From an uncultured Bifidobacteriaceae bacterium (lineage in GTDB: Bacteria > Bacteroidota > Bacteroidia > Cytophagales > UBA9547), in NCBI GenBank assembly GCA_964565665.1, contig CAZMFZ010000001.1, forward strand, positions 6,668 through 70,667: a DNA stretch of 64,000 nt. Reading direction: 5' to 3'. The notes under the pieces are model-generated. The model saw only the letters and a list, made by a program, of their open reading frames with translations. It was not told the origin of the DNA and searched no databases. A program made the translations under genes and the position numbers. Below are positions 1,146-46,657 of the stretch, piece by piece (the first letter of the stretch is position 1; each line of letters begins with the position of its first letter).

Positions 1146-2483
1146 TTATTTTCCACTTTTAGTAATCCGACTTAATAGGCTGATATAGAACAATTTATAA
1201 TATTGTATCGCATACATAATGATATTTAGAAAACGTATATCTAAAGTCCGCTTCAAATACACTTGCGTAAAAACAAACCCCAAAATACACATAGCCAAAG
1301 TGCCATAAGCTGTACCTATAATTCCTAGCCAAATGATGAAAAAGTAGTTTAAAACCAAGTTTATAACAATACTTGCTAGAATATAATAAAAATTAAGTTG
1401 CGGCTTGCCAATAGAGTCGAGTATAGTGCCAAACTGCCTCGCGAAAGGCAAAAATATCACTTGCAATAGGGTAATTTGCAGTATTGGCACAGCATCGGAA
1501 TAGGTAGGTCCGGCAATTATATTTACCAAATATGGAGCAAATACAATCATTAATACAATGCCTGGGGCTACCATACACAGTATTACCCCTACCGATTTTT
1601 CATAAAGTAGTTTGGCTGCACCCAATCCTTCTTCATATATTCTTTTAGAACTTTGTGGAAACACAATTGAAGCCACAGCATTTATTGGCACATCAAATAA
1701 ATTGACAATTCTAGCCGATAAATTATACAATGCTACAGACGTGGGTGCTAGCATATAACCCAGCAACATTTGGTCGCTCGATTTGAAAAAGGTAGCTCCA
1801 ATACTTGTGCCAAACGCAAACTTCCCATAGTGAAATAGCTTTTTAATCCATTCTGTATTGAATTCAAGGCTTAATTTCAGGTATTTTCTTGAAAATATAT
1901 AAGATGAAATAGATCCGATAATAGCCCCGAAGGTCTGAAAATTCACTATTTTCAACAAACTCAAGGCATCAGCATTTATAAAATGGTATACTATATAAAT
2001 AAAAAAACTGCTTTGGCGAATGAAATTGCTGATGAAAATACCTTTGAAATCAAGATTGGCCTGCTGAATGAAATTGAACTGAGAAAATGGAATCAGGGTT
2101 ATGGTAGTGAATATGTAAAACTTGAACATCAATTCCAATTGCGGACTATGCCACGATTGTGCCAAATATCCCGCTAAAAAAAAAATAAGTACAGATGAAA
2201 TGAGGGTGAGTAAAATATTCAAAGCCAATGAGGCCGACATTACAGAAGAATGTTCTCGCTCAGGCGTAGAAGCCAAAAATTTTACCACTGCATTCTGAAT
2301 AAGGCCATTTCTAGCCATTTCTATTAAAGTAGTTACCGACAGAAACAATGCCCAGATGCCAAATTCTTCTTTTGAAATAATTCTGATAAGCAGATAGAAG
2401 CCTCCAAAACCAAAAAACATGGTAGAAAGCTTTTCCATGATGGTGAGCAAACCCGAATTAATCCAGTATCCTTTTTGTGCCAA
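1146..2483 (-). CDS. polysaccharide/oligosaccharide flippase (Wzx, MOP superfamily)
   Basis: 445-aa polytopic membrane protein with a TTG start. The N-terminus ...FGFGGFYLLIRIISKEEFGIWALFLSVTTLIEMARNGLIQNAVVKF is typical of Wzx/polysaccharide biosynthesis protein families. Confidence 0.8.
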   Translation of the reverse strand: MAQKGYWINSGLLTIMEKLSTMFFGFGGFYLLIRIISKEEFGIWALFLSVTTLIEMARNGLIQNAVVKFLASTPEREHSSVMSASLALNILLTLISSVLIFFLAGYLAQSWHSPQLELMFKFYIFTTITLIPFSQFNFIQQANLDFKGIFISNFIRQSSFFIYIVYHFINADALSLLKIVNFQTFGAIIGSISSYIFSRKYLKLSLEFNTEWIKKLFHYGKFAFGTSIGATFFKSSDQMLLGYMLAPTSVALYNLSARIVNLFDVPINAVASIVFPQSSKRIYEEGLGAAKLLYEKSVGVILCMVAPGIVLMIVFAPYLVNIIAGPTYSDAVPILQITLLQVIFLPFARQFGTILDSIGKPQLNFYYILASIVINLVLNYFFIIWLGIIGTAYGTLAMCILGFVFTQVYLKRTLDIRFLNIIMYAIQYYKLFYISLLSRITKSGK

Positions 2484-2596: not shown

Positions 2597-2620
2597 GAAG
2601 GAAATTATTTCTACATACTC

Positions 2621-2686
2621 TGCCCTTGCAAGAGTTTTCCACCTGAAAGCCTATTTTTTAATTGGTGAAAATGCCAACTAAGGCCA
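2621..2686. repeat. left copy of a 66-bp direct repeat flanking the GTNAC array
   Basis: tgcccttgcaagagttttccacctgaaagcctattttttaattggtgaaaatgccaactaaggcca aligns without gaps to 3031-3096 with 10 mismatches in 66 (hand count). It contains the small hairpin TTGG-tgaaaatg-CCAA. Confidence 0.7.
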
Positions 2687-2709
2687 CATACACTTCAGAA
2701 GCCATATTT

Positions 2710-2935
2710 TTAACTCTAGTGTCACAACGTGAGCCTAAAGAATAACGTTGTGCAACTAAAGAGTAACGTTGTGTAACTCTAGTGTTACGATTTATAACTA
2801 ATGAGTAGCAACGTGTAACTCTCGTGTTACAGTGAGTGACTAAAGAGTGACAATTTGTAACTCTAGTGTTACAATGAGTGACTAAAGAGTTACAGTTTGC
2901 AACTCTAGTGTAGCAATCTGTAACACTAGAGTTAC
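2710..2935. repeat. phased array of ~11 x 21-bp units (22 GTNAC pentamers at alternating 11/10-bp spacing)
   Basis: GTNAC or one-mismatch variants start at 2710, 2721, 2731, 2742, 2752, 2763, 2773, 2784, 2794, 2805, 2815, 2826, 2836, 2847, 2857, 2868, 2878, 2889, 2899, 2910, 2920 and 2931. Two dyad types alternate: GTAAC-TCTAGT-GTTAC and GTGAC-TAAAGA-GT(G/T)AC. The last unit is the exact reverse complement of the first type. No ORF; many stops in all frames. Confidence 0.85.
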
Positions 2936-3030
2936 ATTGCCTAATAATAGAAATCGCAACTAACGAATGCTAGCCATAGTATCAGTTTACTATTTCCAAA
3001 CCAAAGCCCAAAATCAAAGTGTAAAATCTT

Positions 3031-3096
3031 TGCCCTGGCAAGTGTTGTCTACCTGTAAGCCTATTAGTTAGTTGGTGAAAATGCCAACCAAAGCCA
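3031..3096. repeat. right copy of the 66-bp direct repeat
   Basis: tgccctggcaagtgttgtctacctgtaagcctattagttagttggtgaaaatgccaaccaaagcca is the same length and orientation as 2621-2686, located 410 bp downstream of it. Confidence 0.7.
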
Positions 3097-6543: not shown

Positions 6544-7344
6544 CTAAAAATCAGTCTTAATTTTGGATAAAAAATCAGTTTCAGTTTTCTGCCCTGCTAA
6601 TTGGCCGCCATCCAATATCAATATTTGCCCAGTCATAAAGCTGCTTTCATTGCTGGCTAAAAATAAAAACGCAGGTGCAACCTCTTCTACTTTTCCAGTA
6701 CGATTCAATGGAATATATCTATCTACAAACTTCTGCACAAATTCGGGTGAGTCTATTTCAATCGACATTGGCGTTTGAATATAACCAGGACAAACAGCAT
6801 TTACCCTTATTCCCAAATGAGCCAACTCCAATGCCATAGTTTTGGTGAGCATGATTACACCTCCTTTCGAGGCATTGTAATGGGCATAGCCCGCCTCGCC
6901 ATCCATTCCGTTTTTACTTGCCATATTTACCACCACACCCGATTTTCGTTTTGCCATTCCTCTGCAAACCGCTTGGGAAATAAAGAACATTCCAGTGAGA
7001 TTGATATCTACAATTTTCTTCCAATCGGCCTCTTCAATTTCTAAAAATGGCGTTTCGCTTGCAATTCCGGCATTATTAATAAGTACATCTATTGGCGCAA
7101 TCGTTTCCGCTTTTGCTACAGCTTCATATACTTCTTTTCTATTGCTCACATCTACTAAGTAGGTGTAAACTCTTTTCGCCATCTTTTCAAGTTCTATTTT
7201 GGCAGTATTCAGATTCTCTGCATTGAAATCGAACAAGGAAAGTATTGCTCCTTCGGCTGCAAACTGTTTTGCAATTTCAAAGCCAATACCTCTTGCAGCT
7301 CCTGTGATTAAGACATGCTTGTTTTCAAATCTATTAAGTCTCAT
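6544..7344 (-). CDS. SDR-family oxidoreductase
   Basis: TGAARGIG Rossmann motif, NNAG, and the YxxxK site (YNASKGG). Confidence 0.85.
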   Translation of the reverse strand: MRLNRFENKHVLITGAARGIGFEIAKQFAAEGAILSLFDFNAENLNTAKIELEKMAKRVYTYLVDVSNRKEVYEAVAKAETIAPIDVLINNAGIASETPFLEIEEADWKKIVDINLTGMFFISQAVCRGMAKRKSGVVVNMASKNGMDGEAGYAHYNASKGGVIMLTKTMALELAHLGIRVNAVCPGYIQTPMSIEIDSPEFVQKFVDRYIPLNRTGKVEEVAPAFLFLASNESSFMTGQILILDGGQLAGQKTETDFLSKIKTDF

Positions 7345-7831
7345 TTATAGATATTTTAGGTTTTAAATAATCAATTTTAGATTGGGATGGCACACACATT
7401 TCACGAACAATGGCAGTATAGGAAGTATCGCCCGAGTACACCCTATAATCTAGCACCAAACTTTGAACCATGCCTGCGAAAACACAGGCAGGATTATTCA
7501 TCCAGTTTTCCCAAGTTTTGCCTTTGGCATAGTCTTTCGGATCACGCATGTGTGGCCCTTGAAAACAGCATGAAATATAATATAGCTTTGCTTTTGTGGC
7601 CGAATCGACAGGTGTACCCGATTTTTTGAATTCAGAAGCCCTTTTTGCCGTTTCTACATACGATGCACCAGGAATTTCAGGCTTGTAGCCGCCTAATAAT
7701 TTTCCCTTGTTATCAAGAATTTTCTTGTAGCCGCAAATAGAATCTGAAGTGGTAAGTTTTATTGTTTGGGCATTTGTGTAGGAAATAAAACCCCAAAATA
7801 GAATGTAAAATAAATAAGTAGTTTTTTTCAT
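7334..7831 (-). CDS. hypothetical secreted protein
   Basis: MKKTTYLFYILFWGFISYTNAQ signal peptide. Its stop overlaps the SDR start by 11 nt, an operon-like arrangement. No family recognised. Confidence 0.5.
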   Translation of the reverse strand: MKKTTYLFYILFWGFISYTNAQTIKLTTSDSICGYKKILDNKGKLLGGYKPEIPGASYVETAKRASEFKKSGTPVDSATKAKLYYISCCFQGPHMRDPKDYAKGKTWENWMNNPACVFAGMVQSLVLDYRVYSGDTSYTAIVREMCVPSQSKIDYLKPKISINET

Positions 7832-7868
7832 GTGTAGCATATAGATTATTGTATGAAATAGCTTTCAT

Positions 7869-7892
7869 AGCCCTCGGTTTAAACCGAGGGCT
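7869..7892. terminator. GGTTTAAACC-centred hairpin downstream of the aminotransferase gene
   Basis: AGCCCTC-GGTTTAAACC-GAGGGCT is a perfect palindrome 17 nt after the stop of the 7909..9237 gene. It is followed by TTTTG on the plus strand only, so terminator function is plausible but not classical for the minus strand. Confidence 0.45.
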
Positions 7893-7908
7893 TTTGTAAA
7901 ATAGATAT

Positions 7909-9237
7909 TTAGATTTCGCTCAACACCTGTCTAGTTATTTCAAGTGTTTTATCAATGTCTTCCATCGAATGCGAATAGCTTACCGAACCTTGTTTGCAAG
8001 CCAAGGGAATGTGGTAAATGCCTTTTTCAATCAATGCTTGTCTGTATTTAATATCGAATGCAAAATCGACATGGTGCAAAATATCGTGCAAATTTTGAGG
8101 CACTACTTTTGAGAAATACACGCAAAAAGCAGAAGCATTGGTAGACAAAACAATATCAATTCCTTTATCTTGAAATAATTGCTCAAGCCCATCATACAAA
8201 TGTTGGCTTACATTTTCAATTTGCTCATACACCTGAGGATTTTTCAATATTTTGAGCGTGGCAATAGCTGCAGCTGTATTGAATGGATGTGCATTATAAG
8301 TGCCAGCAATCAAAACCCGTTTTTGAGGAATAGGGTCATCAAACAAACTCATAATTTCCTTTCTACCTCCTATCACACCCAATGGAAAACCATTAGCAAC
8401 CGCTTTGCCAAATACTGAAAGATGAGGTTTTATGCCTGCCACACTTTGGTAACCTCCAAGTGCGGTGCGAAATCCTGTTTTCACCTCGTCAAATATGCAA
8501 ACTGTTCCGTTACGCTCGCACAAGTCATACAAATCTTTCAAATAGTTTTGTTGCGGATGTACTACACCAATATTTTGCATTACAGGCTCTAGCAGCACAC
8601 AAGCAATCGGGTATCTTTTCATCACATATTCTACTGAATCCAAATCATTGAAATTCACTATATGAACACGTCTCTTTGTCATTTCAGGTATACCAGCCGA
8701 CATGGGAATAAACGGATATTCACCCACAGTCACAAAAGGGCCGGTTTGTGCCAAAGTTGGCATTACAGCACGGGCTACTTCATTGTGCCAGCCATTGTAG
8801 CCTCCCATTATCAAAATAATATCTTCTCTTCCGGTGTAGGCTCTGCTTAATCGAATAGCGTGTGCGGTGGCTTCGCTGCCGGTGTTAGTGATCTGTACCA
8901 ATTCCATTGATGGCACTGCTTGGCAAAGTAATTGCGAAAGTTCTGCCTCCCACTGGTTTGTACCCGTACCCATCAATGAGGTAAAATCGTTCATCGATTT
9001 GGCTACGGCTTGGTTTACCTCAGCATAATTATGCCCTAAAAAATGAGGTGCAAACGCAGCGTGATAATCTATATATTCTTTGCCTTCAATATCGTACATC
9101 TTGCTACCTTTGGCAGATTTGAATACAATATTGGGCTTTACTTTTCTATTTAAAGAAACTACGCCTCCAGCAATATATTGAGAAGCTAAGGCAGTTATTT
9201 CTTCGCTTGGGATATTTTGGTGTATTTCTGATGTCAT
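7909..9237 (-). CDS. class-III (PLP) aminotransferase, glutamate-1-semialdehyde aminomutase-like
   Basis: 442 aa; ...YIDYHAAFAPHFLGHN..., GSEATAHAIRLSRAYTGR, and FDEVKTGFR (PLP-lysine motif). Confidence 0.8.
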   Translation of the reverse strand: MTSEIHQNIPSEEITALASQYIAGGVVSLNRKVKPNIVFKSAKGSKMYDIEGKEYIDYHAAFAPHFLGHNYAEVNQAVAKSMNDFTSLMGTGTNQWEAELSQLLCQAVPSMELVQITNTGSEATAHAIRLSRAYTGREDIILIMGGYNGWHNEVARAVMPTLAQTGPFVTVGEYPFIPMSAGIPEMTKRRVHIVNFNDLDSVEYVMKRYPIACVLLEPVMQNIGVVHPQQNYLKDLYDLCERNGTVCIFDEVKTGFRTALGGYQSVAGIKPHLSVFGKAVANGFPLGVIGGRKEIMSLFDDPIPQKRVLIAGTYNAHPFNTAAAIATLKILKNPQVYEQIENVSQHLYDGLEQLFQDKGIDIVLSTNASAFCVYFSKVVPQNLHDILHHVDFAFDIKYRQALIEKGIYHIPLACKQGSVSYSHSMEDIDKTLEITRQVLSEI

Positions 9238-18189: not shown

Positions 18190-19144
18190 ATATTGCAGAT
18201 AAAAATTTCTAAAGTATAAAACTTAATCGTGAGCTTTTTAGACTCTTTGAAAAACTAATACATAAATATCGTGCCAACATATTCCATCCTCCAAACTATT
18301 TTCTACACTCAAAAACTTAAGGAATAGCTATCAGCTATATATATGCAATATTCAGATCTATATACAAATCTAAACAGACAGCTTTTTGAATTAAAATGAG
18401 AAATATAATGTAAATATAAGCAAGCACCATATCAGTGAAAATATTTTAGATAAATCCATTTGTTCAGTTTGATATTTTGAACAATTATCTACAACTATTA
18501 AAAGTAAATAAGATATAATGGCATTTATATAGAAAACACCAGTACATCTCTTAACATTTTTTTAAGTATTGTATGCTAATTATAAACATTGTTGCAGATT
18601 TCATAATTTATAAGGCAATAAGTGTGAAGTATTTCGTTAATATTTTAATATATTTCGCATATATCACATTATTTATTAATGTAAGCCATATAATATTTCA
18701 ATATTGTAAATATTATATATATATTTTTATAAATACATATATAATACAAAATTTTATTCTTAATTATTGCATATTTCATAATAACTATGTGAAATATGTG
18801 ATGGATAATGTATACATTTTGATAAATTAGATTAGAATTATAACATATGCAGAAAGTTTGCTTCAAGTTTCAATTATTTACATCAAAAAATTATAAAATT
18901 CTGTAGATAAGAACCGACCAGCATTATATTCACTGTTCTAATATGAATTAAATCGAGGTATTCGTAAATGATATCACCAGATTTGTTGCAGACCTTCACA
19001 GTAATATCTCCACTTATGTAAATTTATAATCCTTTCTTCTTTCAGTTTGCTTCAAAACATTATTTATTGAGGCGTATCTCACGAAATTTGAATATAAAAT
19101 GATAATGTAAATTAATATTTTATGAATTATTGAATTAAAATTGA

Positions 19145-36871: not shown

Positions 36872-37225
36872 CTACTCTTTTTTGTGGTCAGATTTTCTAC
36901 TATTATTCATATTATTATAATGAGAATATACTGTATTGATAAAGCCAAGGATTATTCCAATTCCCAATAAAATGTAAACAATTGTAAATAGTTTGCCAAA
37001 ATCGGTTTTAGGAGCAAAATCTCCGTAGCCAATAGTTGTCAATGTTACAACTGAAAAATAAAGCGCATCTAAAAAACTCCAACCTTCTACAAAATGATAG
37101 GTAAGTGTACCGATTAGCAGTATTACCATACTCGTATAAAGTAAATTGCGGTAGTTTTCGTCTTTTAGAAATGAGGAAATCGTTTTGAATACTATCATAA
37201 AATTGGCTTCTAATTTATTGTACAC
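36872..37225 (-). CDS. two-TM potassium channel family protein
   Basis: Selectivity filter TLTTIGYGD between two TM helices; 117 aa. GTG start, or an internal ATG nine codons in. Confidence 0.8.
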   Translation of the reverse strand: MYNKLEANFMIVFKTISSFLKDENYRNLLYTSMVILLIGTLTYHFVEGWSFLDALYFSVVTLTTIGYGDFAPKTDFGKLFTIVYILLGIGIILGFINTVYSHYNNMNNSRKSDHKKE

Positions 37226-37335
37226 TCTTATTAATGTCTCCTCGCTTTGGCCCCCCTACAAAGCATACAATTCCGACCTGTGAAGTCACTTGACGAGGAG
37301 GCTTATATCAACGAGGGCATCTCCAATTTCTAATG

Positions 37336-37701
37336 CTAACCCTTTGGCGAACGGTCTTTACAAAATACTTTGCTGATTACTTGATTGGTTTTCAATACGC
37401 GACAATGTTTCAATGAAATGGTTACGAATCCGCCATCATAATCGCGCAATATGCCCTTCCAAGCAAGGTTTGGTTTGCCGTATAACCCTTCTGCATATAT
37501 GATGGAGCCGCCTGCATTGTCAGTATTTACCATGCCAAATTTTTGAAGTGCTTTTGCCACCACTAATTCTCTGGCAAGCAAGTCAAATTTTGAACAATCT
37601 AATTCCAGATCTAGCTGTATTACGGCTCCTTCGGGTATTCCTCCTTCTGTGGGCCCGTCAGTCCAATGGGTTGGAAAAACAAATTGTTTTACTTGCCATT
37701 T
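37336..37701 (-). pseudogene. C-terminal fragment of an unidentified gene (no start codon, bounded by an upstream stop)
   Basis: The stop-to-stop frame reads KWQVKQFVFPTHWTDGPTEGGIPEGAVIQLDLELDCSKFDLLARELVVAKALQKFGMVNTDNAGGSIIYAEG... This reads like the tail of a larger protein. The track ORF (81 aa) is only its distal part. Confidence 0.3.
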
Positions 37702-38060
37702 TTATATTTAGTTCAAAATTCAATTTCAAGTGAGGATTTTGCAATTGCAAAGAATTCATAAAGCCTAACAGCTGGTTTCTACTTTATTTACCTTGCTCTA
37801 TTATTTATGAGCAAAAGTAACCTTATTCACTCAAAATTAACTCCCACATACTGCTATTAAAATACAAAATTGGACAAATGAAAACTGGCAGTCTTTTGAT
37901 TATTGGCTTGAAAGGATTTATTGCATGGCTGGCTTGTTGCACAAGACCTTTAACATTGGCAAAGCCTATTTCAATCGCTATAGCAAATATTGATTGAATT
38001 CTACTCTTAAACATATAATCATAAATGGCATATCAATGTCATTAACTTAAGATATTCCTT

Positions 38061-38104
38061 CTCCATTTATTGCCGTTGGTTTAAACCAACGGCAATAAAT
38101 GGAG
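38061..38104. repeat. 44-nt perfect palindrome centred on GGTTTAAACC
   Basis: CTCCATTTATTGCCGTTGGTTT|AAACCAACGGCAATAAATGGAG. It is flanked by a second inverted pair, ATTAACTTAAG (38041-38051) and CTTAAGTTAAT (38126-38136). Confidence 0.8.
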
Positions 38105-38198
38105 GCGTACCCATACGAATTAATCCTTAAGTTAATCACATTGAATGGTATATTGTAATTTGCACTCCAACAACACAGTGCAGGGAAAAGCTAAATGA

Positions 38199-39086
38199 AT
38201 GGAAATCCAAATAAATAAAATAGAATATATACCTGCCATCCCTTCTGCTTCTGGAATAGCTTATGTACAACCTTATATTTTTATCGTTGGCGATGATTCA
38301 AATTTTCTTTTTGTGTTGGATGATATGTGGAATGTAGTAACAACAGTGCAACTCTACACAGCCACAGAATTTAAATCGGAAGGCAGAATAAAGAAAAAAC
38401 ATAAAAAAGACCTGGAAGGATTAACTAAAATTAAGCTAAAGGGCAATGATTATGTACTCGCTATTGGCTCCGGCTCTACAGTACTTAGGGAACATGGGTA
38501 TTTGATCCAATCAGTTCCGCCATTCGAAGTCACAGCATTTAGCCTGTCGCGTTTTTATAGCCTACTTAGCAGTGAAATATTTAAGTTAGGAAATCATAAG
38601 CTCAATATTGAAGGAATAACTGCAGACGATGAAAAGATATACTTACTTCAAAGAGGCAATATATCTGGTTACAATAGTATGCTTAGCATAAAAACCGAAG
38701 ATTTATTTAATTTTATAAATGGTATTTCATCTATTCTACCCGATTATACTACTACAACTTTCAATCTTCCCAAAATTGGAGGGCTTATGTCAGGCTTCTC
38801 GGGTGCTGATATTATTCCGAATACTTCGCAATTAATTTTTTCTGCAACAGTGGAAAATACAGTAAATGAAATAGATGACGGTGAAATGCTTTGTTCTTAC
38901 ATTGGTATTATTGATTTGAAAAACAACAACCAAGTAGCTGATATTGTGAAAATAGAACCTGAAAACGTTGGAAAATTAGAATCGCTAGCCTTTCTTCAAA
39001 TGGATGATACTAGAATAAAAACAATAGCAGTTACCGACAATGATGGATTAGATTCTCAACTTATACAATTTGAAATCATACTTTAA
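38199..39086 (+). CDS. hypothetical protein (repeat/propeller-like, no signal peptide)
   Basis: 295-aa ORF with normal composition. Motifs such as NIEGITADDEKIYLLQRGN and KLESLAFLQ...IAVTDNDG hint at a beta-propeller-type fold. Family not recognised. Confidence 0.55.
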   Translation: MEIQINKIEYIPAIPSASGIAYVQPYIFIVGDDSNFLFVLDDMWNVVTTVQLYTATEFKSEGRIKKKHKKDLEGLTKIKLKGNDYVLAIGSGSTVLREHGYLIQSVPPFEVTAFSLSRFYSLLSSEIFKLGNHKLNIEGITADDEKIYLLQRGNISGYNSMLSIKTEDLFNFINGISSILPDYTTTTFNLPKIGGLMSGFSGADIIPNTSQLIFSATVENTVNEIDDGEMLCSYIGIIDLKNNNQVADIVKIEPENVGKLESLAFLQMDDTRIKTIAVTDNDGLDSQLIQFEIIL

Positions 39087-39141
39087 TCATTTTTTGAAAT
39101 ATAGCACTTACAGTATTTTTATATTTTGAGGAAAAGGCAAC

Positions 39142-39384
39142 TCACTGTAGTTTGTAATACATCAGCAAACCAAGGAAAGCCGATAACCCCAATACTAAAC
39201 TTATTATAGGTAATACGTTCCAAAGTATTTTCCACCCAAAAATGAAAGCCACGATTGAGCCCAAAAAGGCCATAGGAATACCTATCCAAGCAAGATTCAG
39301 AAAGAAACCATAGTATTCGAAAATTTCAAGTGCTTTAGGATTTGTATAGTCCATATGTCCGGGAACACCTAATGCACTCGCCAT
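39142..39384 (-). CDS. possible small 2-3 TM membrane protein
   Basis: 80-aa ORF, hydrophobic (FFLNLAWIGIPMAFLGSIVAFIFGWKILWNVLPIISLVLGLSAFLGLLMYY). It overlaps the end of the truncated PIN ORF and may be a by-product of the rearrangement. Confidence 0.3.
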   Translation of the reverse strand: MASALGVPGHMDYTNPKALEIFEYYGFFLNLAWIGIPMAFLGSIVAFIFGWKILWNVLPIISLVLGLSAFLGLLMYYKLQ

Positions 39385-39563
39385 GCATAAGAAAAACCCA
39401 ATTGAATGTAGTCTCTATAACCTAAAAACTCAATGCAAGTAATAAATGAAATGGTAAAATTCTCATTGATAACATCAGCTAAAAAAGCCAATCCATTTTC
39501 AGGGAGCTTTTTCATTTGAGCGTCAATAAGGCTATTGGTATCTATCAAATATTTCTTTCCCAT
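39369..39563 (-). pseudogene. truncated PIN-domain (VapC-like) toxin gene
   Basis: MGKKYLIDTNSLIDAQMKKLPENGLAFLADVINENFTISFITCIEFLGY is a good PIN N-terminal half. The ORF ends after 64 aa and no PIN C-terminal half is found in any frame downstream. Confidence 0.55.
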
Positions 39564-39793
39564 TCAGCACGGCTTTGGTTTACGTAGGCTTTCATTTTCT
39601 CACCTTCTTCATTACTCATTGTTCCAAAAAAATCAGATGGCTATTTCTTTTGCTGTATAGAAATGGTAATGTTGCTTTTTGCTTCTTCCTCAATATAGAA
39701 AAGGCAATGTACTTTTTTTCCTACATAATCTTTGGGGAATGAAATCTTCAAATCGTAGGTCTCATTTTGTGGAGTGTTTACTTGTAATATCAT
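39545..39793 (-). pseudogene. antitoxin-like gene interrupted by an in-frame TAG
   Basis: MILQVNTPQNETYDLKISFPKDYVGKKVHCLFYIEEEAKSNITISIQQKK*PSDFFGTMSNEEGEKMKAYVNQSRAEWERNI*, with TAG at 39641-39643 (minus strand). The C-terminal PSDFFG..S.EE......V...R.EWERNI tail is the type seen in Bacteroidota antitoxins upstream of PIN genes. The stop overlaps the PIN ATG. Confidence 0.5.
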
Positions 39794-40123
39794 ATTGCGC
39801 TTGATTTAGAAGCTTTTAGTACTGCAATGTACCAAAATTTTTTCTTTGCCCTTGATGTACTTCTCCAACAAGATATTAATTTCTAGACATAATATCTCCT
39901 GCTCATTGCAGCAAACTATTGAAAATTAAGACAGCTAACAAATTTTGGTATAGACAGGCTGAAACTATTCATTTTATAATTTAGTTGCGTGTCGGAGGGC
40001 AAGCCTCGGAAACCGAGTTTGTTATTTCTCTGTAATAATTATCCCGTGCTAGGTGGCACACCTAACACCCTTAAATTCAAAACCTAAGACGATTTATTTT
40101 ACCTGAATTTGTCTCTATTTTAT

Positions 40124-40147
40124 AGCCCACGGTTTAAACCGTGGGCT
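40124..40147. terminator. GGTTTAAACC-centred hairpin at the 3' end of the DUF6261-like gene
   Basis: AGCCCAC-GGTTTAAACC-GTGGGCT. Its right arm is duplicated 18 nt downstream (TTTAAACCGTGGGCa, 40151-40165), and that copy contains the gene's stop codon. Confidence 0.5.
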
Positions 40148-40151
40148 GAGT

Positions 40152-40916
40152 TTAAACCGTGGGCAATGAATTTATACCATCAGTGCCCTTGTTTTTATTT
40201 TCTCTATTCGCCAATATCAAATTGTATTTGGCTATCACGGAGTTGAGGCTGCCTACTAGATTGGTATAGGGGGCAGTATCCAGTTCGTCTTCTTCGGCTA
40301 AGGCAATACGGGCCTCGATGCCGTCACGCAATTTCTGCCATAGTGTTGTGGCCTCTTTACGTTTGTCTCTGAACTTGCCATCGGTAGGTTTTTTGTCGTC
40401 TTCCGAACGGGAGATGAAGGTTTGGTTGAAGGCAAGGTTGGCAGTGTTAAGTTCGTCTCTCCAATCTTCAATACCCAATGCTTTCAGGGCAGCAGCAAGT
40501 GAGGGTTTGGTGCTCCAATCGCTGATAATGGTACTCAAAGCGGCCGTTTCGGCTAGGTTATTTTTGTTGGCTATGGCAGCACCCGTGCCAAAGGTGAGCA
40601 CATGTTTGTATAAAGCCTCAGCATTTTTTTTGGTTTCAGGTTTGAAATGGTGCGTCAAACTTTCGAAGTAGAGTGCAATGCCTTTGATGGCTTCGTCTCT
40701 GCGGTAGTCTGCAGCGTTCACCTCGGGTGTCAAACTACTGCCTGTTTCCAAATTTAAGAGTTTGGCAGCCGCTGCACTTGTAGTTTTAAAAGCGGTAAAG
40801 GGCACCACAATACGCAATTTTGTAGGATCGTGCTTTTCACAAAGTGTCAAAATGTCGGCACCGAATTGTACAAACTCTTCGTTGCGTAAAGTAAAGATAT
40901 TGATGGAGTCTATCAT
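40152..40916 (-). CDS. hypothetical protein, DUF6261-like
   Basis: 254 aa. The N-terminus MIDSINIFTLRNEEFVQFGADILTLCEKHDP resembles the Bacteroidota DUF6261 family as I recall it. It is visibly more G+C rich than its neighbours: a hand-counted 60-nt sample at 40321-40380 gave 29 G+C, against 20 in 38641-38700. Confidence 0.55.
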   Translation of the reverse strand: MIDSINIFTLRNEEFVQFGADILTLCEKHDPTKLRIVVPFTAFKTTSAAAAKLLNLETGSSLTPEVNAADYRRDEAIKGIALYFESLTHHFKPETKKNAEALYKHVLTFGTGAAIANKNNLAETAALSTIISDWSTKPSLAAALKALGIEDWRDELNTANLAFNQTFISRSEDDKKPTDGKFRDKRKEATTLWQKLRDGIEARIALAEEDELDTAPYTNLVGSLNSVIAKYNLILANRENKNKGTDGINSLPTV

Positions 40917-40935
40917 GGAAATATAAATTATTAGG

Positions 40936-41262
40936 AGGTGAAAGAAAGAAAATTATTTTATGGCTAAATTAAATGAATTTGACGACAGCATTTTATCTAA
41001 GAGCAATCGTAAAATGTATTTGACAGCTGTTTTTTCAGTTTTAGGTACCCTCAAATAAATTTGATGGCATAATTTTGTTTAAAAATAGCAATCAAATAAA
41101 TTTGAAAGCTATTTATAATTTAAATGTAACCGCCAAAAGAATTTGAAAGCCATTTTTTTGATTTTTGAAGGCATCAGATGGATTTGAAATCCACTTTTTA
41201 TATTTTGTACTTATCAAATAAATTTAATTTCTACCCTTAATATTTTTTTCATCTACCATTAC
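40936..41262. repeat. tandem array of ~8 degenerate 41-bp units headed by ATTTGA
   Basis: ATTTGA (or AGGTGA/ATTTAA at the ends) starts at 40936, 40977, 41018, 41059, 41100, 41141, 41182 and 41222, giving spacings of 41,41,41,41,41,41,40. Three unit junctions form the near-palindrome TCAAATAAATTTGA. Each unit has a T-run about 12-20 nt in. Confidence 0.8.
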
Positions 41263-41470
41263 CAAAGGAAATCTTAAATGGCACAGGGAGTAAAGATAAA
41301 GATTATAGAGTTTTCGTGTACGATTGTCAGAGTAAGGGCAAGGTAAATAAGGAGAATAAAAATTAAAAGTTTTTATGAAAGTTTTTTTGAATTAAATTCA
41401 AAATAAAATAGGTTTGAGGTAATGAGAAAGACAAGAGACTAGGATATATTTACAACTAGACAATAGGCTT

Positions 41471-41581
41471 ATGTTGCCTGTGGCTCAAAAAACAAATCTT
41501 CAATTGAACATTACAGGGATATTGCTATATATAGATGGTAATTTTATCCAATACTTGGAAGAAGAAGCAATCGGGCGATAA
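41471..41581 (+). pseudogene. BLUF-domain-like gene remnant
   Basis: The short frame MLPVAQKTNLQLNITGILLYIDGNFIQYLEEEAIGR* carries the BLUF core signature (N..ITG.LLY..G.F.Q.LEG). An upstream frame has ..RLGYIYN* resembling the BLUF N-terminal strand. Stops and shifts occur on both sides. Confidence 0.35.
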
Positions 41582-41675
41582 GTAGGTGTTTTTTAGTCTG
41601 ATAATAAAACAAAGTGCAGAATTTGGCCAGCTATTCATTCCCCTATTTTGTATCTTGCAAATAAAAATATATCCT

Positions 41676-42070
41676 ATGAGCATAATCAAAATACCCCTAC
41701 ACTTCGAAGGTGACAAAGGCGAAAAAACATTATACACGCTTTTCGGTAGCGGCTCTACCTATTCCTGTATCCACCCATCATACATTCATAAGCTATGTAC
41801 GGGCATTAAATTTAAAATCCTATGCACTTTGGCACGGCCTCTGAAGGTGCATATATAGAGGTAAAAAAAGCATGCAGACTAGAGTTTTACATTGACGATG
41901 TAAGGCTTACAGATGAATTTTATGTGGTGCCAGGCTTATCTGAAGAAGCTATAATAGGTGCCACCACCATGCAAAAATAGCGTATGGAGCTAGATTTTGA
42001 GCATGATAAGCCGATAGTTGACCCTCGGGTAGCTAAGCTCATCCTTATCAATTTGATTAGGAAGGGGTAA
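41676..42070 (+). pseudogene. retropepsin-like aspartic protease gene with a frameshift and an in-frame TAG
   Basis: MSIIKIPLHFEGDKGEKTLYTLFGSGSTYSCI... has Gly where the D-S/T-G catalytic Asp is expected. The frame ends at 41858. A second frame continues as ..ASEGAYIEVKKACRLEFYIDDVRLTDEFYVVPGLSEEAIIGATTMQK*RMELDFEHDKPIVDPRVAKLILINLIRKG*, with TAG at 41978-41980 where W is expected. Confidence 0.5.
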
Positions 42071-42121
42071 AGGATGAGATTTGTCTAACTTCCAAAAAGT
42101 TGACAAATCTAAAAAGAAATG

Positions 42122-43369
42122 CTACTTCCTCACCTGCCCGTTGCCCTTCACCAGCCATTTGTAGCTGGTAAGTTCATTCAAACCCATTGGCCCACGGGCG
42201 TGAAGTTTTTGTGTACTTATGCCAATTTCTGCTCCCATGCCAAACTGAGCCCCATCTGTAAAAGCTGTAGAAGCATTGGCGTACACAGCCGCGGCATCTA
42301 CATTTCTAAAAAACTTGGCAATATGTGCTTCGTTTTCAGTGATAATGGCTTCGCTGTGGTTAGAGCTGTAATCTGAAATATAGGTTAAAGTATCGTCAAG
42401 TGATGCTACCGTTTTAATGGCCATTTTATAATCTAAAAACTCAGTACCAAACGATTCCGGAGTGGCATGTTGCAGCAACCCAACAGGGTAATTTCGGGAT
42501 AACGAGGCGAATGCTTTTTCATCAGCATAAATAATAACTTTGCTTTCTTGCATTGGAGCAATCAACTTTGGCAAATCTCCTAATCTCGCTTCATGTATTA
42601 ATAGACAATCCAAAGCATTGCACACGCTTACTCTTCTTGTTTTGGAATTATTGATGATTTCTTTTCCTTTCTCCACATCGCCAAATTCATCGAAATACAC
42701 GTGCACTATGCCAGCGCCTGTTTCGATTACTGGTACTTTGGCATTTTGCCGCACATAATCAATTAGGCTTTGGCTACCTCTGGGAATAAGCACATCTACG
42801 TAGCCAACGGCACCCAACAATTCGGCAGTGGCTTCTCGATTGGCGGGTAGCAAACCAATGGCATTCTCGTCTATTTCGAAATCTTTTAATACAGATTGTA
42901 TTAATGTCACAATGGCAATGTTCGAATATTCTGCATCGCTGCCGCCTTTTAAAATAACTGCATTTCCCGATTTCAAACAAAGAGCAAAACAATCGAAAGT
43001 AACATTAGGTCTGGCTTCATAAATAATACCTACTACGCCCAAAGGCACAGTAATTTTCTCAAGCTCCAACCCATTTTCCAGTATTCGCTTTTCAATACTT
43101 TCCCCAACAGGGTAAGGCAGCGAAGCTACAATTCGTATTTCTGAGGCAATATTTTCTATTCTATGTTTTGACAAAAGCAGACGATCGTACTTTGGGTCTG
43201 CCTTATCCATTCTAGCCAAATCTCTTTCATTTTCTACAAGAATAGTTTGGTGTTGGGCTACAGCTTTATCGGCCAATGCCAATAGAATAGCGTTGATTTT
43301 ATCAGCCTCCAAAGTATTGAGCATTCTGGAAGCTTTTTTTACTGCTTTAAATAGAGATTGGTTTTTCAT
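42122..43369 (-). CDS. proA: glutamate-5-semialdehyde dehydrogenase
   Basis: 415 aa; ...[16 protein letters not shown]..., the [11 protein letters not shown] catalytic Cys region, and the C-terminal ...[19 protein letters not shown]. Confidence 0.92.
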
Positions 43370-46060: not shown

Positions 46061-46657
46061 TTATTCAAACACCTCTTTTAAATAAATACTCAATCCCTCA
46101 ATCACATTCACATTTAAAGTTTCCTCGGCAGCATATTTTTTCAACAATTTGTATTTGCCGTTCTCAAGCAAAAATACATCTACAATTTGCTCAAGAGGGC
46201 TTACTATCCAGTATTCTCTTACGCCAGCCTCTTCATAAAGGTCAAATTTTACTGTAATATCGTTTTGCCTTGTAAATGGCGACAATATCTCAATAATCAA
46301 ATCTGGTGGTCCATTGCAGCCACGTTCATCAAGTAGTGATGGATCGCAAATCACACAAATATCGGGCTGCACTACTGTAAATACCTCATTATCATTGTCT
46401 TTGTGTTGTAATCGTACATCGAATGGGGCATCGAATACTTGGCATCTTTTCTTTCTCAAATACGACCCAATTTCAACCAAAATATTTTTGCTTACTCTTT
46501 GGTGGTATGTACTCGGTGCAGGAGACATAGGCACTATTTTACCCTTTATTAATTCTACCCATTCCTCAAATTGCCAAGTGAGATAGTCGGAATATGAATA
46601 TGTTTTGGAAGGGTCTAACTGAGATATATCTGTTATCATTGTAATTAGATGAGTCAA
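46061..46657 (-). CDS. Uma2-family (DUF820) endonuclease
   Basis: YSDYLTWQFEEWVELIKGKIVPMSPAPSTYHQRVS..., VVQPDICVICD, PDLIIEILSP, and YEEAGVREYWIVSP. Confidence 0.8.
   Translation of the reverse strand: MTHLITMITDISQLDPSKTYSYSDYLTWQFEEWVELIKGKIVPMSPAPSTYHQRVSKNILVEIGSYLRKKRCQVFDAPFDVRLQHKDNDNEVFTVVQPDICVICDPSLLDERGCNGPPDLIIEILSPFTRQNDITVKFDLYEEAGVREYWIVSPLEQIVDVFLLENGKYKLLKKYAAEETLNVNVIEGLSIYLKEVFE

Follow-up and report, generated by a model that had tools for sequence, protein, structure and literature searches.

In the 64-kb stretch of Bacteroidota DNA analysed here (the window; uncultured organism, G+C ~36%), a 4.9-kb interval (37226-42121) separates a small K+ channel gene, Kch (36872-37225; Ion_trans_2), which bounds it on the left, from proA (42122-43369), which bounds it on the right. 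Both flanks are housekeeping (sucD, aspartokinase, proB, queA and genes for a Band_7 protein, an alpha/beta hydrolase and a pseudouridine synthase), and open reading frames (ORFs) of at least 90 amino acids cover 39% of the interval as against 84% of the whole window. The locus raises the question of what has befallen this stretch of chromosome and which parts of it are still alive. In a preliminary description it was read as an old, decaying accessory island with a series of broken genes, two intact ORFs, two palindromes and, listed as debris, a 41-bp tandem array. The answer given here turns on that array and on the gene directly downstream of it, which belongs to the domain family DUF6261.

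The DUF6261 gene and its upstream array

The DUF6261 gene (40152-40916, minus strand; E 2e-26) encodes an intact, full-length protein of 254 amino acids, which scored 93.5 bits against PF19775 (Pfam cut-off 27) and aligned over residues 1-250 to homologues of 240-255 amino acids. A full-library search matched 1258 representative clusters of the family, and the literature searches yielded one incidental mention only. On the same strand a degenerate tandem array of seven 41-bp units (40969-41255) ends 53 bp upstream of the start codon, with the leader or promoter region (40917-40968, minus strand) between array and gene. Read on the DUF6261 sense strand, the array core GCTTTCAAATTTATTTGA holds the palindrome TCAAAT-nn-ATTTGA; the arm ATTTGA is invariant in six of the seven units, and the partner arm drifts without compensation. 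Four occurrences of ATTTGAWRKC stand at an exact spacing of 41 bp and looser matches extend the series to seven units. Tandem Repeats Finder did not report this array; its lag-41 autocorrelation of 0.47, compared with a mean of 0.30, was reached in none of 2000 shuffles, and the repeat seen in the preliminary description is thus real. The idea that each unit is a Bacteroidota promoter was rejected, since only the A+T-rich units of the window fit it, and these on the strand directed away from the gene; the family as a whole does not.

The association of array and gene was examined in 33 metagenome loci fetched via DUF6261 alignment, with homologues 29-38% identical to the window protein and 25-47% identical to one another. 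A gene was counted as positive when the strongest autocorrelation lag in the 450 bp upstream of it was 41 or 42 bp, or double that, with z of at least 3. This was the case in 27 of the 33 DUF6261 loci (22 of 26 after near-duplicates were collapsed), compared with 1 of 98 other genes of the same loci and 8 of 1073 genes in unrelated loci. Two of those eight were this species' own DUF6261 gene; the control total is 7/1171 (p = 6e-43 against the DUF6261 loci). Control genes with a lag-42 signal (L020, L083, L095 and L051) were considered as possible family members and are not DUF6261 relatives.

In the relatives, the arrays reported by Tandem Repeats Finder had 2-8 copies, with 26-210 bp (median 80) between the array end and the start codon, and within the DUF6261 loci arrays of 41-42 bp were found only within ~420 bp upstream of the DUF6261 start. 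A family member with 27% identity that was fetched by a different route (L135) is preceded by 8.2 units of 42 bp. The units keep a fixed orientation relative to the gene and share a plan in which an inner palindrome is combined with an outer inverted repeat (often CCCGAAAG...CTTTCGGG) and the sense strand carries CCAAACA; the core of the window array corresponds to the CCAAACA/inner-palindrome part of this plan. The genomic contexts are otherwise unrelated, chromosomal and varied. The pairing of array and DUF6261 is conserved across the family at this level of protein divergence and in unrelated surroundings, and to list the array as debris was to misplace the emphasis: it is a family-typical upstream element of DUF6261 genes. 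Rfam gave no match at gathering score in the window and none at E<=0.1 in six array-bearing loci, and literature searches on the array-DUF6261 link and on 42-bp repeats in Bacteroidetes returned nothing relevant. Array and gene apparently form a live, previously undescribed module.

Selection on the gene could be assessed by comparison with a second strain, a contig from a same-species metagenome-assembled genome (MAG; GCA_038331695.1, L084) that is 99.25% identical to the window over 12.5 kb. All three single-nucleotide polymorphisms (SNPs) in DUF6261 are synonymous (pS 0.018, pN 0), and this gene is the one in the interval clearly under purifying selection. Its G+C content is 45-49%, compared with ~36% locally. 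The structure prediction proposed in the preliminary description gave a confident model, an elongated all-helical bundle (pLDDT 92.7), and no structural match.

Between the same two strains, 19% divergence was seen in the patch at 40918-40997 (83 bp), which takes in the DUF6261 leader and the array's first unit; turnover of array units or gene conversion may be the cause. In another setting, some ten loci of one freshwater lineage (among them L101-L105, L111, L116, L118 and L130) carry the DUF6261 module inside a type II-C CRISPR-Cas locus. The order in L105 (1115-9203) is cas9 (1541 amino acids), a 42-bp array, DUF6261, a Y1_Tnp-like gene (200 amino acids), cas1 and cas2, and the Y1_Tnp-like gene is flanked by 44-bp tandem arrays of its own (6736-6903 and 7527-7697).

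Broken and intact genes of the interval

Six broken genes were identified in the interval, five of them already listed in the preliminary description and all found where it had placed them. The hypothetical-protein remnant at 37336-37701 (minus strand) is 5'-truncated and retains the C-terminal ~120 amino acids of a member of a rare family. The match, at 55-63% identity, is to residues ~88-194 of hypothetical proteins up to 207 amino acids long, and the remnant has no start codon; the missing N-terminal part could not be traced upstream by tblastn. The PIN (VapC-like) toxin remnant (39369-39563, minus strand) is a 64-codon ORF corresponding to residues 1-54 of PF01850 proteins of 125 amino acids, with up to 89% identity. 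Homology ends at residue 54 and the C-terminal ~70 residues are gone, so that a complete domain of ~125 amino acids with its C-terminal acidic residues is not present. The antitoxin pseudogene (39545-39793, minus strand) has an in-frame TAG at 39641-39643; its frame can be aligned over 75 amino acids (45% identity) with a fused gene call, P0129, in its antitoxin half, the alignment running straight through the TAG, which pairs with a Lys, and homology persisting beyond the stop. The layout of a VapBC-type pair is retained, but the antitoxin ORF upstream of the toxin is interrupted.

The newly recognised gene is a membrane-protein remnant (39142-39413, minus strand), of which an ORF of 80 amino acids (39142-39384) is left. 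It is 82.5% identical to a protein of 102 amino acids encoded directly after DUF6261 in a relative (L134), where the two genes adjoin beside mqo without a toxin-antitoxin pair. The first ~14 codons have been lost at the junction with the PIN fragment, which the nucleotide homology reaches at 39413. On the plus strand, a BLUF-domain remnant (41471-41581) scored 27.8 bits against PF04940 (cut-off 25) and covers only profile positions 22-51 of 92 rather than the complete domain of ~92 residues.

The sixth gene, also on the plus strand, is a retropepsin-like aspartic protease pseudogene (41676-42070), which has been frameshifted by the loss of 1 bp at 41813, has TAG in place of TGG at 41978-41980 and no longer encodes the catalytic Asp. 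The catalytic codon (41745-47) is GGT (Gly) in the window, whereas the D of LFDSGST is present in 16/16 aligned intact homologues; Pfam retropepsin models appear only once this D is restored, and then below their cut-offs. Once repaired, the frame matches its closest homologue (P0009) along 99% of its length with 82% identity, a full-length homology, and the family comprises more than 1200 intact homologues of 125-132 amino acids. The gene has a different chromosomal context in each of four relatives examined, which provides no ancestral layout. The family (proteins P0009-P0128) is unusually conserved across Bacteroidota (60-82% identity) and uncharacterised. In one relative (L096) the retropepsin-like gene has a Uma2-family gene near it; the window, too, encodes a putative Uma2-family endonuclease (46061-46657; E 2e-33), downstream of proBA and surrounded by housekeeping genes.

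The two sizeable ORFs regarded as intact from the outset are indeed full length. Besides DUF6261, this concerns the 295-amino-acid product of 38199-39086 (plus strand; E 9e-72), a DUF6929/DUF6910 protein that scored 242 bits against DUF6929 (PF22000), above the Pfam cut-off, and covers profile positions 2-286 of 286. Between the strains, six of its eight SNPs are non-synonymous (pN/pS ~0.84); the gene looks to be under relaxed or diversifying constraint, intact and evolving almost neutrally. A literature search on DUF6929 found nothing relevant. The profile searches suggested in the preliminary description were productive with Pfam, which supplied both domain families; the PADLOC defence-system and NCBIfam models matched no interval protein, and sequence searches of the PDB were likewise without a match.

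The lesions are supported by homologues and by independent assemblies. Three Logan assemblies (SRR6448209, SRR6448205 and SRR30304982) and one from JGI (3300020203) are 100% identical to the window across the lesions, and a fifth, JGI 3300015360, matches it at 99.5%. Sequencing errors are excluded because the lesions recur in up to five independent assemblies. In the second strain, the retropepsin-like gene is without the frameshift and TAG of the window and has a 2-bp deletion at 41973-74 instead, and its catalytic position reads AGT (Ser). The same strain has an additional 1-bp deletion, causing a frameshift, at 37616 in the 37336-37701 fragment, and its membrane-protein remnant is frameshifted at 39196. 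Since different lesions occur in the same genes of a second strain, decay is ongoing. Non-intact parts of the interval differ between the strains at 36 positions in 3154 bp (1.14%) and by 5 indels, whereas the synonymous sites of seven genes in the flanks differ at 5/1369 (0.37%; Fisher p = 0.01); the interval diverges ~3x faster than neighbouring synonymous sites. These observations support the view of the interval as a decaying, weakly constrained region and not a recent insertion, which upholds this much of the preliminary description.

Two other accounts of the block were considered. That its lesions are artefacts, or that programmed recoding keeps the genes functional, is a general possibility, and the 41813 deletion does sit within an A/T run; with the lesions reproduced across the assemblies, the catalytic Asp gone, the 37336-37701 gene physically lacking its N-terminus and the PIN domain more than half of its length, and a second strain carrying other lesions in the same genes, it can practically be dismissed. 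The accessory island of the preliminary description would be an old, horizontally acquired block, the remnant of a plasmid or of an integrative and conjugative element, in which the toxin-antitoxin pair served as an addiction module and the array is a leftover iteron or centromere. In favour of this, the block does contain what is left of a toxin-antitoxin pair, the G+C content of DUF6261 exceeds that of the DNA around it, the tandem array of palindrome-bearing units resembles F-plasmid sopC (PMC3177203), and within-species divergence is elevated. However, as the preliminary description had rightly noted for integrases, transposases and tRNAs at the edges, the hallmarks of mobility are missing: no integrase, transposase or conjugation gene was found inside the interval or within ~9 kb on either side, where the ORFs are housekeeping, no rep or par gene accompanies the block, no tRNA is encoded in the whole 64 kb, and no flanking direct repeats were found at the interval edges. 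The array accompanies DUF6261 in ~26 unrelated chromosomal contexts with no ParA or Rep partner, the retropepsin-like gene is widespread on Bacteroidota chromosomes, and DUF6261 adjoins the membrane-protein gene beside mqo in L134. A scan of viral contigs found no relative of DUF6261, and tblastn of the toxin and antitoxin fragments against plasmids gave no match. An acquired island is, on this evidence, rather improbable.

The comparison of synteny proposed in the preliminary description was carried out, and the collections contained no close relative in which an empty site could be seen. A scan of 185,579 species genomes with proA gave 67% identity at best, in a setting of different neighbours; Kch or sucD did not lie near proA in any of the 80 loci, the nearest of which (L004) continues with other genes, and look-ups of exact proteins returned the same species only.

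The proposed role of the array and its rivals

As a whole, the locus is probably best explained as a decaying interval that contains a live array-DUF6261 module, the array being operator-like and acting as DNA. The Kch-proA interval is a chromosomal stretch under weak selection, in which six genes decay in place via point mutations and small or large deletions, namely the hypothetical gene, both genes of the VapBC-type pair, the membrane-protein gene, the BLUF gene and the normally well-conserved retropepsin-like gene. In the window the toxin-antitoxin pair lies between two genes, DUF6261 and the membrane-protein gene, that adjoin in a relative (L134). Because the membrane-protein homology meets the PIN fragment at 39413, a single deletion would have removed the 3' half of the PIN gene together with the 5' end of the membrane-protein gene, fusing the two; this is read from L134. 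Two units are still alive, the DUF6929 gene and the DUF6261 gene with its own upstream array.

The array itself would act as double-stranded DNA, a phased, operator-like series of sites controlling DUF6261. With palindromes every 41-42 bp, or ~four helical turns, the sites would lie on the same face of the helix, so that a sequence-specific protein could bind there as adjacent dimers and regulate the DUF6261 promoter ~50-200 bp downstream. Since the palindrome varies by lineage and DUF6261 is the sole constant companion of the array, the binder would be either DUF6261 itself or a lineage-specific factor encoded elsewhere; if it is DUF6261, the outcome would be autoregulation or titration. A role as DNA rather than RNA is suggested by the period of 41-42 bp, which is held while the unit sequence diverges. 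In addition, the non-Watson-Crick positions of the stems comprise 16 G:U, 11 A:C and 22 other pairs, which is no excess of G:U (the numbers are small), and the sense strand folds more stably in 10 of 26 arrays, which is no preference over the antisense strand.

A serious rival, though an unlikely one, is that the array works as single-stranded nucleic acid, as a 5' leader or a separate RNA of ~40-nt nested hairpins that controls mRNA stability or translation or sequesters a protein. Most units can form an outer stem of 6-9 bp and an inner stem of 4-6 bp with a loop of 3-4 nt, the predicted folds of the arrays are far more stable than those of shuffled sequences (z -2 to -10), and both stems vary between loci yet stay complementary. 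Against this stand the lack of bias of G:U over A:C, folding energies without strand preference, the invariance of the window arm ATTTGA while the other arm decays, and the absence of an Rfam family match; moreover, a dimeric DNA-binding protein would need dyad symmetry equally. Very unlikely, in our estimation, is a selfish or neutral repeat that has no role for DUF6261 and merely accumulates there, either as a cluster like the repetitive extragenic palindromes (REP) and bacterial interspersed mosaic elements (BIME) or as a slippage minisatellite. Such an origin would be in keeping with the other palindromic repeats of this genome (the GGTTTAAACC hairpins and the 21/42-bp array at 2706-2935, both described below), with the 90-95% uniformity of young arrays, as after recent expansion, and with the Y1-transposase-like gene that adjoins in some loci and has its own 44-bp arrays. 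But position, orientation, period and unit plan are conserved in unrelated contexts among proteins of 25-47% identity, old arrays keep the core motif while the linkers drift, and arrays of 41-42 bp are nearly absent upstream of other genes (7/1171).

Several points weigh against the operator-like array and the decay scenario. Many units can be drawn as one nested hairpin of ~40 nt with outer and inner stem, which would give a constant unit length without helical phasing and suits a role as single-stranded RNA or DNA; the canonical Bacteroidota -7 box (TAnnTTTG), whose absence likewise fits an array within a leader, was not found between array and gene in most loci. The DUF6261 model contains no helix-turn-helix or other known DNA-binding fold, Foldseek with this model returned nothing below E 0.05 and no PDB or BFVD match, and DUF6261 proteins are acidic (median isoelectric point 5.3), which together weaken the idea of DUF6261 as the binder. 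One family member with 29% identity (L139) has only 1-2 degenerate units, and the two peptide patterns used to fetch the 33 loci may have favoured one part of the family. As to the decay, the SNPs are few and a MAG consensus may combine more than one strain, and in place of a sister species a single short contig (L134) informs the ancestral content and the order of events.

By analogy, the closest known architecture to the array is that of F-plasmid sopC, where SopB binds a 16-bp inverted repeat present in every one of 12 repeats of 43 bp (PMC3177203). Like this type Ia partition site, the arrays described here consist of tandem direct units of ~4 helical turns (41-42 bp), each with a short inverted repeat, and adjoin a gene to which they would be functionally tied. 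They differ in lying upstream rather than downstream of the gene, in having 2-8 units rather than 12 and in their varied chromosomal contexts; no ParA/SopA or ParB/SopB homologue is encoded in the window or in the conserved neighbourhoods, and DUF6261 is acidic and without a known DNA-binding fold. Phased repeats directly upstream of a gene, with sequences that vary by lineage, are also seen in iteron and operator arrays such as Rep iterons and R1 parC/ParR. Iterons usually repeat every ~11 or ~22 bp and accompany Rep or ribbon-helix-helix proteins, whereas no replication or partition gene is linked to the array here. REP/BIME elements with their Y1 (RAYT) transposases share the clustering of short extragenic palindromes, and a Y1_Tnp-like gene with 44-bp arrays adjoins DUF6261 in ~10 loci; the present units, in contrast, are strictly head-to-tail with a fixed period and belong to one gene family instead of being scattered between genes. 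CRISPR arrays likewise are built of tandem palindrome-containing units, and DUF6261 lies inside the type II-C cas9-cas1-cas2 locus in ~10 loci, but here it is the entire unit of 41-42 bp that recurs, with up to 95% matches in L132, unique spacers are absent, the period is far shorter than repeat plus spacer, and most arrays are nowhere near cas genes. The interval as such resembles the pseudogene-rich variable ('junkyard') regions, in which truncated and frameshifted genes likewise cluster, polymorphism is raised and lesions vary by strain; it differs in having no mobile-element hallmarks and in that the decaying retropepsin-like gene is otherwise strongly conserved across Bacteroidota.

Palindromic hairpins, other repeats and significance

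The palindromes of the block are also real. The sequence GGTTTAAACC occurs three times in the window, compared with 0.07 occurrences expected, and each of the three lies in the loop region of a perfect hairpin; the stems vary, but by compensating changes. The first is a composite hairpin of 112 nt (38033-38144), the core of which is a perfect 44-bp palindrome (38061-38104) centred on GGTTTAAACC; its predicted RNA fold has -56 kcal/mol (z -11.3). The second (40119-40171) follows DUF6261 and consists of a perfect palindrome (40124-40147) and a partial duplicate (40150-40170), which provides the last 4 codons and the stop codon of DUF6261; this hairpin is probably the terminator of the gene. The third copy, GCCCTCGGTTTAAACCGAGGGC (7864-7895), was found outside the block, just past the stop of the gene at 7909-9237 (minus strand). 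No GGTTTAAACC hairpin was present in 1.4 Mb of other Bacteroidota loci, and the hairpins are most simply taken as terminator-like or REP-like elements specific to this species. Logan short-read contigs stop exactly at the 44-bp palindrome (the ends of L001-L003) and 19 bp upstream of a DUF6261 start (L134); these repeats thus break assemblies, and the arrays are probably under-represented in metagenome contigs.

Elsewhere in the window, a 916-bp gap without ORFs, upstream of the gene for a Wzx-like polysaccharide flippase (1146-2483, minus strand), contains a repeat element (2618-3096). The central part of this element (2706-2935) has ~11 units of 21 bp with a 42-bp super-period and the palindrome TGTAAC-TCTAGT-GTTACA, and is flanked by 69-bp direct repeats that are 84% identical (2618-2686 and 3028-3096). 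A further stretch of 955 bp (18190-19144) is without an ORF of at least 90 amino acids and contains an A+T-rich near-palindrome at 18711-18746.

The cluster of pseudogenes is ordinary biology, but it is a clean case in which gene loss was caught in progress, and the small retropepsin-like protease being lost here is otherwise 60-80% conserved across Bacteroidota. The part worth following is the array-DUF6261 module. Tentatively, array and gene may be a self-contained, undescribed nucleoprotein module of Bacteroidota, in which a helical protein of new fold (more than 1000 sequence clusters) is controlled by, or assembles on, phased lineage-specific palindromes, and which has moved into many contexts including type II-C CRISPR-Cas loci. 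The 41-42-bp array represents a class of repeat that annotation pipelines and Rfam leave unflagged, and it accounts for the frequent breaking of short-read contigs just upstream of DUF6261 genes. With the rule that ties array to gene, an anonymous domain family becomes a testable system with a cis element, a gene and a phenotype that can be assayed.

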